From a virus, in IMG/VR virus record IMGVR_UViG_3300042691_016420, positions 1 to 64,000 of that record: a stretch of 64,000 nucleotides of DNA, one strand, 5' to 3'. The translations under genes and the position numbers were made by a program. The notes beneath the pieces are model-generated. The model was not told where the DNA came from. It ran no database searches and saw only the letters and a program-made list of their open reading frames with translations. Below are positions 3,841 to 7,788 of this stretch, piece after piece; position 1 is the first letter of the stretch; each line of letters opens with the position of its first letter.

Positions 3841-4416
3841 ATGCGTAAAGTAACTGTTGTAACAACAAATAACTCTCAAGTTAATCAATTTGAGGTTGAA
3901 GCTGGAGTAAGCACCTTCTCTCAGCTAGTATCTGCTCTTCCTGCTGTTGATTTCTCTAACAAGACTGTCACTGTAGGTAAAGCTCTCTATTCTCTGGAGC
4001 ATCCTGATGCTGTTCTTCCAGAGGGTAACTTAAAAGTCTTCATCTCTCCTAAAGATATGAAGGCTGCTCTACCTGCTGAGTATTATGATCTTAGAGCTAA
4101 GCTCAAAGATTTCAGATATGATGCTGTAGAGAATGATGATGATGAGGTATTAGACATCATTGGTAATTATACTCATGACAGTGTTAATGTTATGAAGGCT
4201 AAAGTTGCTGATGTTGAAGCTCTTCTTGCTGATAGAGAAGAAGATGAGGAAGAATTGGTGGTAGAAACACCTCAACCTATTTCATGGGTAAACCTCTCCT
4301 CTACTGAGGATAGACTCTTTGAAATTGAGTGGCAGCTTGGCATTAGGAATGCTACTAATGCTCAACGCTTTAATCAAAGGGCTCTAGAGGAAGCTAAAAA
4401 TGCTACCAAGAAGTAA
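3841..4416 (+). CDS. Ubiquitin-like (beta-grasp) precursor with acidic C-terminal extension
   Basis: N-terminal ~76 aa with Ubl-like pattern (RKVTVVT...TFSQLVSAL...SLEHPDAVLPEGNLKVFISPKDMKAA); first gene before E2/JAB/E1. Confidence 0.6.
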   Translation: MRKVTVVTTNNSQVNQFEVEAGVSTFSQLVSALPAVDFSNKTVTVGKALYSLEHPDAVLPEGNLKVFISPKDMKAALPAEYYDLRAKLKDFRYDAVENDDDEVLDIIGNYTHDSVNVMKAKVADVEALLADREEDEEELVVETPQPISWVNLSSTEDRLFEIEWQLGIRNATNAQRFNQRALEEAKNATKK

Positions 4417-5548
4417 GAAGCATGCGGAGATTATGGGGTTTCTTAGGAGACCCCAACTTCTCCAACCTAAGTTTAGCTTAGATACTGATTTACAGGAATA
4501 TAAGAAATCTATTAAGAGACATAAGCTCTATGAATTTGTAGCTCAATATTATAGTTATAATGGTATAATTAAAGAGATACATTCTAATAGACATGATAAT
4601 TTCTTTTTAGATATACATAATGCTGTTAAGCATAGTGGTTATACTAATAGTACTCATGTAAAGATTCTTAAGATGTATAACATTCTTAAGCAATCTGAGA
4701 TGTATGATGAGAGTGTTTGCAAGATGGGTCTTGTAAGTGTTAATGCTCATGAGCAATATCTTGGTATACATTTCCCTGTAATATTTTTACAAGAGGTTAA
4801 TAGTAATAGAGAACCTATTGAGATTAGAGATATTTATTTCTATATAACTAATTCTTCTTTACATGTATTTAGAACTACATTAGATGTTGTTAATAAGGAT
4901 TTTATACATCCTCATGTTAGTGGCAACTTTGGTAGTTTTTGTACAGGTGATTCTCCACTAAAGATGTCTTTGAATAATTTGCATTATAATATAGATTCTA
5001 TTACTCAAGATGATGCTGATATTTTCTGGGTAAACTTGTATAGAACTATTACTCAGAAGACAGAGGTAGGTGATCATTATTATGCCTTAAGTAGATTAAA
5101 TCAAGGTATTACACTTGCTTACACAGAATTCTTAGATAGAGTTTATAATGATGAGGAGTTTCTAAGTAAAGTTACTAACTATATCTCTGTAACAATGTCT
5201 AATGAGGCTATAGAAGTAAGCTTTGATAAAGATGCTCTAAAGAAAGATTTCTTTCAACTTTTCTCTACAGAATCTTCTGAGCAGGCAAAAGAAGAAGCAC
5301 CTCTTGAGAGAGCTGTAACCTTTAATAATATTGCTCTTAAGAAGAAGAAATTTATTCCTCTTTATAAGAGACCAAGAACTATGATTAAGAATGTAGACCA
5401 ACTCCTAGATCAACTTCTAATGGATTGTGTCCCAACTTCATTTATTAATAATGTTTATGATGATTATAAAAAAACAACTGAAGAATCCAATAACTCTGGA
5501 GAACAGAGTACTGGACAAAATCAAGTATTTGAATTCCAGATGCTCTAA
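4400..5548 (+). CDS. Prokaryotic E2-like (UBC-fold) conjugating enzyme
   Basis: HPHVSGNFGSFCTG (His at 4907, Cys at 4940) matches the E2 HP(N/H)...C active-site signature; start uncertain (4400 or 4433). Confidence 0.7.
   Translation: MLPRSKKHAEIMGFLRRPQLLQPKFSLDTDLQEYKKSIKRHKLYEFVAQYYSYNGIIKEIHSNRHDNFFLDIHNAVKHSGYTNSTHVKILKMYNILKQSEMYDESVCKMGLVSVNAHEQYLGIHFPVIFLQEVNSNREPIEIRDIYFYITNSSLHVFRTTLDVVNKDFIHPHVSGNFGSFCTGDSPLKMSLNNLHYNIDSITQDDADIFWVNLYRTITQKTEVGDHYYALSRLNQGITLAYTEFLDRVYNDEEFLSKVTNYISVTMSNEAIEVSFDKDALKKDFFQLFSTESSEQAKEEAPLERAVTFNNIALKKKKFIPLYKRPRTMIKNVDQLLDQLLMDCVPTSFINNVYDDYKKTTEESNNSGEQSTGQNQVFEFQML
4426..4463 (+). promoter_or_regulatory. GC-rich hairpin just after the Ubl stop codon
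   Basis: GGGGTTTC-TTAG-GAGACCCC core (4435-4454) with outer GGAG/CTCC pairing. Confidence 0.5.
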
Positions 5549-6527
5549 TATAGAGTGGAGTGGTGTTGGTGTAATGAAAGTAGAAGGAGATCTGCATGAT
5601 GATAGTCTAAAACTACATGTAATAGATTTGCTCCTTAAAGATGTAGGTACTGCCGGTTATACAGAATATGACTGGGGTACAACCTTAGCTGAGTATTTTG
5701 AGGAGAATGAGGATAAGTGGCCTGTAATGTTCTTCAGTATCCACTCTCATCACAATATGGGTGTCACACCATCTGGTGTAGATGATAAGCACTTATATGA
5801 TAATATAAGTAACTTCCCCTTCCATCTCTCTGTTATTGTCAATAACAAGTTAGACTTTAATGCTAGAATTGCTACTGATATGGTAATTGAGAGTGTCTCT
5901 GTTAGAGGCATGGACAGTGCCTACTTTAGTAAGCAAGTAAATGATGGAAGAATTATTGTAGAGTATTCTTTACCTGTAAATATCTCTAGTGCTGATAATG
6001 ATGAGTTTAAGGATGAATTTGATAGGGTTGTAGAGAACAAAAAGTTACTTGAGGAAGCTAAGAAACCTACTTATGGCATGCCTACTAAAAGAAATGGAGG
6101 TCTTCAACAATCCATTCCTTTTGTAAGTCCTAAAACTCAGTTTGGTATTACTCAATATACTCTTGGTACTCTTAACTATAAGTTTACTACTCTTAAGGAA
6201 GTACTAGCAGAACTTAAAACAGATGACCATGTAGATGTCTACCTTGATCAAGTAGAAAAGATTTGCATGGATGCTGTTGATGAGGGTAAGATTAAACAGG
6301 TACAAAGTTCTCTCTATCAGTTGATGACTACATTTGAAGATATTGCTCCTCACCATAAACTAATTAATAGTCTTGTTTATGGATTAGCTGCAATCCATTC
6401 TCTTGTAGAAACTGCAGATATGGAAGATGATTTTAAAGATGTTCCTTTTGGTAATAAAAAAGATAAGGATATCTCTAGAATGACTGATAAAGAGTGGAAT
6501 GAATATATCTCTGATAGAAGATACTAA
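5451..6527 (+). CDS. JAB/JAMM (MPN+) metallo-isopeptidase
   Basis: EWSG and HSHHNMGVTPSGVD (E...HxH-x7-S-x2-D); start probably ATG 5451-5460 rather than GTG 5427. Confidence 0.85.
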   Translation: MFMMIIKKQLKNPITLENRVLDKIKYLNSRCSNIEWSGVGVMKVEGDLHDDSLKLHVIDLLLKDVGTAGYTEYDWGTTLAEYFEENEDKWPVMFFSIHSHHNMGVTPSGVDDKHLYDNISNFPFHLSVIVNNKLDFNARIATDMVIESVSVRGMDSAYFSKQVNDGRIIVEYSLPVNISSADNDEFKDEFDRVVENKKLLEEAKKPTYGMPTKRNGGLQQSIPFVSPKTQFGITQYTLGTLNYKFTTLKEVLAELKTDDHVDVYLDQVEKICMDAVDEGKIKQVQSSLYQLMTTFEDIAPHHKLINSLVYGLAAIHSLVETADMEDDFKDVPFGNKKDKDISRMTDKEWNEYISDRRY

Positions 6528-6532
6528 GAACT

Positions 6533-7213
6533 ATGAGTAGATATAATCGCTTAGAATATAGTAGATTCTCAGCAGCACCATTTGTAACAAAAAAACCCCT
6601 AGAAATTACTCTAGGGGGTTTAGGTGGTGTTGGTGCTTATGTAGCTTTCTTCTTATCCAGACTTAGACATGAGTTATTCTGTTATGAGATGGATACTGTA
6701 GAAGATGTAAATCTAGATTGTCAGTTCTTTAAGTATGAAGACTTAGGTAAACCCAAAGCTTCAGCAGTTTCTGATATGATTAGACAATACTCTAATGGTT
6801 ATCTTGACCATCTTGGCAAATATGAGGAAGGTTGTGATGTAACTCCTTATTGCTTTGCTATGTTTGACAATATGGAGGCTAGGAAACTTATGTTTGAGGA
6901 ATGGTGTAATAATAAAGATAGTCAAATCTTTATAGATACCAGACTTCAAGCAGAGGAATTCCAGATCTTCTGTGTACACAAAGAAAAGCACATTCAGATG
7001 TATCTAGATTCCTTGAGAAATGATGATGAGATACCTGATTTACCTTGTAGTTATAAGCAAACAGGTCACTATGCAGCTATGGTAGCAACTCAAGCTGTAG
7101 CACTATTCTGTAATTATCTTGCTAATCAAAAACATCTTGCTGATATTGGTGAGGAAATTAGAGAAGTTCCATTCTTTACAACTTTTAATGGTTTAACATG
7201 GCAGCAACAATAG
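6533..7213 (+). CDS. E1/ThiF-family adenylating (activating) enzyme
   Basis: GGLGGVG nucleotide loop, DTVEDVNL..Q, GKPKA, FDNMEAR, IDTR, candidate catalytic Cys in LPCS (7046). Confidence 0.9.
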   Translation: MSRYNRLEYSRFSAAPFVTKKPLEITLGGLGGVGAYVAFFLSRLRHELFCYEMDTVEDVNLDCQFFKYEDLGKPKASAVSDMIRQYSNGYLDHLGKYEEGCDVTPYCFAMFDNMEARKLMFEEWCNNKDSQIFIDTRLQAEEFQIFCVHKEKHIQMYLDSLRNDDEIPDLPCSYKQTGHYAAMVATQAVALFCNYLANQKHLADIGEEIREVPFFTTFNGLTWQQQ

Positions 7214-7788
7214 CAGAGATTAGAGAGAAACTTAATAGGTATTCTGATAGTAATTCTAAGGTGCCTCATGTTTTTAGTCCTTATCAGAATTCTCATTATT
7301 GTAACTTTGAACCATTCTCTCAGAAGAAAACTAAGAATTCTCTTGAGGATATATTTATCAAGTTAATGAGGCAATATAAGAGTACTCATAATAGAAAGTA
7401 TCTTCAATCTTTCTTTCCATATTATGTATTCTTAGATTCTATCTTTGATATAGATGGTAAAATTGTACTTAAGATACATAAAGAAAGACCTCCTAATACT
7501 AATTATAATACCAGATATGTATTAGAAGTTACAAGAGATTTCTATGATAAATATTCTAATCAATTAATTAACTTTCTTCCTGCAATTGGAGGTGCTAATA
7601 TGAATGTTGATTATAGACCTAGGGTAGTTATTCATGATGGTATTGATGATATATTTTTCTTATACAATAAGGAATATACCTTCAAGAATATTGCTCAGAG
7701 AAAGGAGTTTAAGGAAATTCTTCTTAATAAAATAAATGGTAAATTTATTTATAAAAAAGAAGTACATTTGCAAGGGCTTCCTTTCTAG
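7198..7788 (+). CDS. Hypothetical protein overlapping E1, ends in LPF
   Basis: 16-nt overlap with E1 gene; 196 aa. Confidence 0.6.
   Translation: MAATIAEIREKLNRYSDSNSKVPHVFSPYQNSHYCNFEPFSQKKTKNSLEDIFIKLMRQYKSTHNRKYLQSFFPYYVFLDSIFDIDGKIVLKIHKERPPNTNYNTRYVLEVTRDFYDKYSNQLINFLPAIGGANMNVDYRPRVVIHDGIDDIFFLYNKEYTFKNIAQRKEFKEILLNKINGKFIYKKEVHLQGLPF

Follow-up and report, generated by a model that had tools for sequence, protein, structure and literature searches.

What becomes of a ubiquitin-like protein (Ubl) when the residue at the end of its fold is an alanine where relatives have a glycine, and what would the protease and the activating enzyme encoded beside it make of such an end? The locus described here raises this question in a phage. 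It lies in a stretch of 64,000 nucleotides, which we call the window, from the genome of a crAss-like phage that also encodes a primase, a Sak4-like ATPase, a Holliday-junction resolvase and a ribonucleotide reductase. The best explanation of the open reading frame at 3841-4416 is that it is the Ubl precursor of a five-gene cassette that adjoins the primase gene in crAss-like phages. An alanine end would be unusual for a ubiquitin-fold tag, if the domain is cleaved and used for tagging, and no beta-grasp Ubl activated through a C-terminal alanine is known to us.

We propose that the JAB metalloprotease of the cassette would cut the peptide bond after Ala76 of this precursor. The carboxylate of Ala76 freed in this way would be adenylated by the E1-like enzyme and then handed on, probably by way of Cys172 of the E1 itself and Cys181 of a 382-aa neighbour. 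The acidic helical tail of the precursor (residues 77-191) would be released as a separate polypeptide with a job of its own. Cleavage, the exact bond, activation of the alanine end, conjugation and any target are all inferred from comparison, and on balance we think that cleavage after Ala76, activation of the alanine carboxylate and release of a tail with its own role is the probable course of events.

A conserved cassette beside the primase gene

Each of the four genes 3' of the Ubl precursor overlaps or nearly abuts its neighbour (Table 1). The order of primase, Ubl precursor, 382-aa-type protein, JAB, E1 and fifth gene is the same in all loci that are long enough. Synteny was followed through the clade of the window (L007-L014), two more distant phages that are uncultured (the Ala-ended L015 and the Gly-ended L016) and a set of named phages, and gene order is conserved in 15 loci, with crAss001, DAC15, cr85_1, cr128_1, cr126_1, cr106_1, bajarodcaudo virus 1 and Flavobacterium phage FpV4 among them. 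The JAB and E1 genes are found two and three genes downstream of the Ubl precursor in all relatives examined. Family searches with the fifth cassette gene returned no match.

Neither the DNA of the window nor its Ubl protein has a match in the INPHARED phage collection, and the named phages were reached solely by using distant homologues as INPHARED queries. Our search of the literature did not find a paper describing the cassette in crAss-like phages; a 2026 preprint makes passing mention of a gut-phage protein family with a UBA5-like fold. Database records label the cassette E1 'thiamine biosynthesis protein' and, once, 'E1 enzyme family protein'.

A further feature of this gene order is that the JAB gene starts ~60-125 nt before the 382-aa gene ends; the overlap is present in most lineages and was seen in the window (5427-5564) and in L008, L013, L015, L016, L001 and L002. 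The JAB start in the window is uncertain (GTG 5427 or ATG 5451), and either start overlaps the preceding gene. The catalytic Glu of the JAB (EWSG, 5553-5564) lies 5 nt past the stop of the 382-aa gene (5548). In many database gene calls the JAB start is placed ~40 residues late, leaving the protein without its catalytic Glu (rows with 89% coverage).

Table 1. Features of the cassette and of its Ubl precursor. Coordinates refer to the window unless another locus is named.
Feature	Coordinates	Strand	Remarks
Ubl-precursor ORF, 191 aa	3841..4416	+	begins 5 nt past primase stop; 138 homologues and 54 distant cluster representatives
Ubiquitin-fold (beta-grasp) domain, residues 1-76	3841..4068	+	AF2 pLDDT 92; ubiquitin-superfold matches; dN/dS ~0.05-0.11
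K74-A75-A76, predicted mature Ubl C-terminal tripeptide; predicted scissile bond after A76	4060..4068	+	aligns with K-[S/A]-G
Acidic helical tail, residues 77-191, predicted released second polypeptide	4069..4413	+	dN/dS 0.23-0.51; separate ORF in cr106_1
G-N-Y-T-H-D motif, tail residues 108-113	4162..4179	+	G-N-[YF]-T kept in most of the family
RLFEIEWQLGIRN motif, tail residues 158-170	4312..4350	+	kept in a subfamily
Candidate E2-like carrier, 382 aa	4400..5548	+	H170-P-H172-V ... C181-x-G183, nt 4907-4948
JAB/JAMM metalloprotease	5451..6527	+	EWSG 5553-5564; HSHx7SxxD 5742-5783
ThiF/E1-like adenylating enzyme, 226 aa	6533..7213	+	GGLGGVG 6614-6634; DNMEAR 6866-6883; PC172SYKQT 7043-7063
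Fifth cassette gene, 196 aa, no assigned function	7198..7788	+	syntenic in relatives
HNH insertion inside the Ubl-precursor gene, two intact ORFs (Ubl plus KF; tail with new start codon)	L020 (cr106_1) 1629-2832

A ubiquitin fold that ends in alanine

The initial annotation described a Ubl-like domain ending in VFISPKDMKAA without a glycine, followed by an acidic helical extension of about 115 residues, and both parts of this description hold. Translation places VFISPKDMKAA at residues 66-76 (nt 4036-4068), with AAG GCT GCT as the codons of K74-A75-A76. The glycines of the 191-aa precursor are residues 22, 46, 62, 108 and 167 only, and thus neither a Gly nor a Gly-Gly lies at the domain end or close to it. 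The extension comprises residues 77-191, has a pI of 4.4 with 27 Asp/Glu against 14 Lys/Arg across its 115 residues, and is predicted by AlphaFold2 (AF2) to form five helices.

The AF2 model of the precursor, made with 48 homologues, has a mean pLDDT of 92 and gives the domain the order strand-strand-helix-strand-strand of a beta-grasp (strands 2-8, 14-19, 41-45 and 64-70; helix 26-32). Confidence falls to 74 across residues 71-80, after which the five helices follow. Because the last strand ends at residue 70 and confidence dips across 71-80, the model suggests a six-residue flexible end, K71-D-M-K-A-A76, and this KDMKAA end would be arranged like the end of ubiquitin.

Structure searches with residues 1 to ~75 return ubiquitin-superfold proteins in nearly all matches. 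With VIA-align, 49 of 50 rows are beta-grasp proteins, at Z 6.8-8.9 and an rmsd of ~2-2.5 A over 65-73 residues, and with Foldseek the domain matches ubiquitin, NEDD8, SUMO, ISG15 and bacterial multi-ubiquitin at TM 0.55-0.66 (target-normalised), the E-values being weak (2.5e-3 to 1.5e-2). A viral structure library gave as its best matches the syntenic proteins of Fpv3, cr126_1, cr111_1 and cr106_1 and, ranking below these, giant-virus and baculovirus ubiquitins. An E1-activated modifier is expected to have a beta-grasp fold, a terminal glycine, usually as Gly-Gly, and a cognate E1. AF2, VIA-align and Foldseek all find the fold in residues 1-76, and the ThiF-like gene alongside, syntenic in the 15 loci, supplies the candidate E1. 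The glycine is missing, with K-A-A at 74-76 in the window and in all its close relatives.

Glycine at the same position in distant relatives

A check proposed in the initial annotation was whether this position reads KxG elsewhere, and it does. Our homologue sets comprise 138 close sequences (66-100% identical) and 54 representatives at the 50% cluster level that extend to ~25% identity. Among 58 compared sequences, the residue aligned with Ala76 is Gly in 46, Ala in 11 and Asn in one, and the glycine form reads K-[S/A]-G. The nearly invariant columns of the wide alignment are L29, L59, P60 and K74 only, and its end consensus is K-x-G. Across 171 sequences, 166 have Lys at position 74, 141 have Ala and 22 have Ser at position 75, and the residue at position 76 is Ala in 123 (nearly all from the window's clade), Gly in 46 and Asn in one. 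Ala76 is present in all ~120 close relatives of the window and in two further cluster representatives. The named phages have the glycine form in every case listed (a slash follows the glycine): KIKSG/AMS in crAss001 gp79, KNIKSG/ASM in cr85_1, KKIKSG/A in cr128_1 and bajarodcaudo virus 1, KKIKSG/AL in DAC15, KQVKSG/GRG in FpV4 gp53, and KKIRSG/AG in cr126_1, which has R-S-G instead of K-S-G.

Judged from this alignment, Ala76 is homologous to the conserved glycine of the distant homologues, and in the window's clade alanine stands in for the usual terminal glycine. Since KAA is found where most relatives have Lys-Ser/Ala-Gly, the JAB and E1 encoded beside the Ala-ended Ubl probably handle an alanine end. 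In a maximum-likelihood tree, the Ala state occurs in two well-supported groups, one formed by the window's clade with P0123 and the other by P0133. The backbone of the tree lacks resolution and so allows either one or two origins of the Ala state.

Asparagine appears at the terminal Gly/Ala position in P0127, a 50%-cluster representative and the sister of P0133 (KFKANA in P0127, KFKAAA in P0133). In the P0127 lineage, either Asn would be tolerated at the end or the cut would fall one residue earlier.

A search for JAB or E1 residues that co-vary with Gly or Ala found none that held. One candidate was the residue that follows HSH in the JAB, HSH[H] being paired with Ala-ended and HSH[N] with Gly-ended Ubls. 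The pairing was obeyed in eight lineages and was then rejected, as DAC15 and cr126_1 combine HSHH with a Gly end. There are columns in the E1 that separate Ala from Gly lineages, and the independent lineages are too few for these columns to be interpreted.

A break in conservation after residue 76

Across 18 homologues with overall identities of 70-89%, residues 1-76 are nearly invariant, and divergence sets in at residue 77. With overall identity at this level, a near-invariant stretch that breaks at 76/77 is more than chance. When the window is set against ten related, non-identical loci, dN/dS is ~0.05-0.11 for the Ubl domain and 0.23-0.51 for the tail. For the domain, dS in these comparisons is 0.3-0.8 and dN 0.03-0.05. 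A dS of this size means that the near-identity of the domain comes from selection and not from recent common descent; on these estimates it is kept by purifying selection, as in ubiquitin itself.

Within the Ala clade there are at most 4 differences in the 76 residues of the domain. A76 is invariant in the window's clade and position 77 varies between L, F and M, which fits the P1 and P1' positions of a cleavage site. In the wide alignment, several homologues have insertions of 10-20 residues immediately past the Gly.

The tail and a natural split

Searches with the tail found no match in Pfam, PHROGs, NCBIfam, PADLOC, PDB sequences or the ESM Atlas. The tail has conserved motifs of its own (Table 1), the one kept in a subfamily following the pattern RLFEVEYxLGIRN.

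In cr106_1, the homologue is in two pieces. The first is a 92-aa ORF ending in KKIKSGKF and a stop, two codons past KSG, so that this Ubl, like BilA, has a short extension, here of two residues only. An HNH endonuclease gene starts 1 nt after this stop, and 15 nt past the HNH stop is a new ORF (METKIMTRNELI...) whose alignment with the tail starts at its second residue. At the DNA level, the likeness of cr106_1 to the crAss001 group spans the Ubl domain and ends at the KSG codons. Because the HNH ORF fills nearly the whole insertion and Rfam detected no intron family around it, a free-standing endonuclease is a more likely explanation of the insertion than a self-splicing intron. Provided that cr106_1 is viable, its Ubl part and tail would function as separate polypeptides in this one genome. 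The motifs conserved within the tail and the split of the cr106_1 gene at this very point support the idea that the tail would be released as a second polypeptide.

Tails vary in other ways across the family. In the cr126_1 homologue (L021 2227-3153, 309 aa), the tail includes an insert whose name in UniProt is ribosomal protein bL12 C-terminal domain (A0A7M1RYT6, BFVD), and tails seem to be a site where extra domains get added. A short acidic motif, S-x-x-E-I-[DNS]-x-[ML]-F, is common to the ends of the tails in Steigviridae homologues (L001 6932-7609, L003 5992-6648, L017, L018, L019, L020 and L021) and looks like a short docking motif; the tails of the window's clade are without it and end in ...EAKNATKK. 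Some matches were set aside. P0110, P0111 and P0117 carry the JGI name 'ElaB/YqjD/DUF883 family membrane-anchored ribosome-binding protein', which is probably a spurious match to the helical tail, and the window's protein has no Pfam match. The profile-search matches P0146, P0159 and P0165 are repeat or coiled-coil false positives.

The constant presence of the tail, with its conserved motifs, could also be expected of a precursor that stays uncut. The beta-grasp would then be an integral UBL domain, as in Rad23 or parkin, docking the helical part on a partner, and the JAB and E1 would act elsewhere. In keeping with this, a search for a stand-alone short Ubl among close relatives found only fragments, and many of the beta-grasp matches are non-conjugated UBL, UBX or DIX domains. 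An integral domain is, however, at odds with the small residue that stands exactly at the end of the fold (46 Gly, 11 Ala and 1 Asn of 58) behind a near-invariant Lys, with the constant linkage of the Ubl gene to JAB and E1 genes, and with the two separate ORFs of cr106_1, split 2 codons past the Gly. We regard an uncut precursor as unlikely, although it deserves to be kept in mind.

If the precursor is cut, the bond could lie elsewhere: after Ala75, after Lys74, or in the linker (residues 77-78). A75 and A76 are both small, the initial annotation had allowed for a cut after KA as well as after KAA, and P0133 and P0127 share KFKA followed by A or N, which fits a cut after residue 75 there; for this pair, a cut after A75 would be equally possible. 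For the window's clade, we think a different bond quite unlikely, given that A76 is invariant and residue 77 varies between L, F and M in the manner of P1 and P1', and that the majority Gly aligns with 76, not 75.

The enzymes of the cassette

With their catalytic motifs intact, the enzymes of the cassette look active. The catalytic Glu of the JAB (EWSG) and its H-S-H-x7-S-x2-D motif are invariant in 20 of 20 aligned homologues; against Pfam Prok-JAB the protein scores 14.3 bits, the cut-off being 25. The conserved features of the E1 are an N-terminal Arg, GxGxxG, DNxxxR and a PC[ST][YM][KR]QT loop with Cys172. Its nearest solved relative by sequence is the NEDD8 E1 subunit UBA3, a weak match (E 0.009). 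E1 identity within the Ala clade is 84-89% (seven loci with a complete E1 gene), and the most conserved cassette products of this clade are the Ubl domain and the E1. The E1 of crAss001 (gp76; L001 10191-11342) is longer by ~150 residues at its N terminus, an extension that the 226-aa E1 of the window and those of L016 and FpV4 lack.

The 382-aa protein is a probable E2, if its H-P-H...C-x-G motif can be likened to the HPN...C signature of E2s. H170, H172, C181 and G183 are invariant, including in crAss001, cr85_1 and FpV4. The AF2 model of this protein is poor (pLDDT 63.7). Structural hints point to UEV (E2-variant) domains only (Z 5.0-5.3; Foldseek probability 0.2-0.33), and the protein has no Pfam E2 match and no significant match in fold searches.

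This weak E2 assignment would suit a pathway other than tagging, one in which the Ubl is a sulfur carrier of the ThiS/MoaD type that, once adenylated by the ThiF-like E1, provides a thiocarboxylate for replication-linked thio-modification and that the JAB merely trims. JAMM enzymes trim the precursors of some bacterial sulfur carriers. The best family matches of the E1 are ThiF models, and the domain aligns with MoaD structures (Z 7.2-7.3) no less well than with ubiquitin. The score against the ThiF equivalog is, however, far under its curated cut-off (38.1 vs 159 bits), and the domain ends in K-A-A, not in Gly-Gly as do all sulfur carriers known to us, which by sequence places the cassette outside the ThiF/ThiS sulfur-carrier systems. 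No sulfurtransferase was recognised in the cassette, and the invariant H-x-H...C-x-G motif of the neighbouring 382-aa gene also speaks against a sulfur carrier. We hold a sulfur carrier to be very improbable. The cassette lies outside PRTRC as well, with 24.6 bits against NCBIfam PRTRC_ThiF (cut-off 144.75) and no PRTRC match in its other genes.

Relation to known systems

The initial annotation had also claimed that JAB proteases mature Ubl precursors and that E1s of the Cap2 type accept a small terminal residue, alanine included, and the literature agrees on both. BilC pre-processes BilA by cutting after Gly97 and removing the residue beyond (PMC10557695). In the BubAB fusion, the cut made by the JAB domain of BubCD falls after Gly229 and yields a Ubl and a second functional protein (PMC11601596).

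Type I Bub resembles the cassette in having a Ubl fused to a second polypeptide of >100 residues (PMC11601596). There, the JAB of the operon cuts right after the last residue of the beta-grasp and frees both parts, as is predicted here. The part freed in Type I Bub is the E2-like BubB, whereas here it would be an all-helical acidic tail, and the candidate E2 is a separate 382-aa gene. Further differences are that JAB and E1 are fused in BubCD and are separate ORFs here, that the terminal residue is Gly229 in BubAB and Ala here, and that the present cassette is phage-encoded, within a replication module. With a partner that is not BubB and a JAB that is not fused to an E1, the cassette departs from the architecture of Type I Bub; the fusion itself fits in its architecture and in the conservation of the site, with a natural split in cr106_1 only. 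A tail of this length and conservation hints at a gene with two products, on the model of Type I Bub though with another kind of second product.

The anti-phage ubiquitination system BilABCD likewise unites four parts in an operon, a Ubl, an E2, a JAB and an E1, the E2 being a candidate in our case, and its JAB pre-processes the Ubl to expose a reactive end (PMC10557695), which is what we predict here. Homologues of Type II BilA have at most nine residues past the Gly, in contrast to 115 in the window's precursor, and the window's E1, at just 226 aa, is too small for an inserted catalytic-Cys domain. BilABCD belongs to the host and the cassette to a phage. By sequence, the cassette is not a member of this system: the PADLOC E1-E2 match to the E1 is weak (E 0.003, 14 bits), and the other genes have none.

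A phage example is offered by the lambda-type TAPI/TAPK proteins, which share with the cassette a phage beta-grasp, a conserved terminal Gly and an adjoining JAB; Iyer, Burroughs and Aravind (2006) predicted that the JAB releases the beta-grasp of these tail proteins at the last Gly (PMC1779556). Unlike the cassette, they have no E1 or E2 and belong to tail assembly, and we detected no sequence relation between them and the window's proteins.

Type II CBASS, with Cap2 and Cap3, is the sole documented case of E1-type conjugation in which the activated end is naturally Gly or Ala (PMC10097602). Cap2 conjugates CD-NTases with either end, some natural Ala-ended ones among them, and Cap3, a JAB, cuts at this activated end, in predicted likeness to the JAB of the window (PMC10097602). 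In CBASS, the conjugated protein is a nucleotidyltransferase instead of a beta-grasp, Cap2 is a fusion of E1 and E2, and the system serves host defence. A Gly-to-Ala change in E. coli cGAS lowers conjugation but does not abolish it, and the thioester intermediate accumulates (PMC10097602). By this precedent, the alanine could weaken or block transfer, leaving a Ubl that is processed, perhaps charged, and rarely or never conjugated, and that acts non-covalently, but we find this highly improbable, given that some natural Ala-ended CD-NTases are conjugated (PMC10097602) and that the Ubl domain and E1 are the most conserved products of the Ala clade, which argues against decay of the pathway.

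A possible alanine-ended modifier in crAss-like phages

Cleavage after Ala76 followed by activation of the alanine end thus remains our preferred reading, in line with what the initial annotation had proposed. What is new here is alanine in place of the reactive Gly, in a precursor of the JAB-processed type, with processing predicted, that has a long second product. A bolder proposal, which we put forward tentatively and with less confidence than the processing itself, is that the C-terminal Ala of a ubiquitin-fold modifier is activated and conjugated in a clade of crAss-like phages, with the tail as a second functional product of the same gene. If true, this would be the first natural beta-grasp Ubl with a reactive end other than Gly, and the switch from Gly to Ala would have arisen once or twice in an otherwise Gly-terminated family. 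Conjugates made through Ala may then be poorly suited to the Gly-specific deconjugating peptidases of the host or of competing elements.

Bacterial ubiquitin-type tagging has so far been studied as host defence, in Bil, Bub and CBASS, and here the kit is carried by a phage, amid its replication genes. The carriers of the cassette are relatives of some of the most abundant gut viruses, and crAss001, DAC15 and FpV4 are cultured members. The alanine end is a natural experiment on the near-universal rule that E1 enzymes and JAB peptidases act on a terminal Gly. Should the Ala form prove to be processed and conjugated, these phages would provide matched Gly and Ala sets of enzymes and substrates from which the determinants of specificity may be learned.
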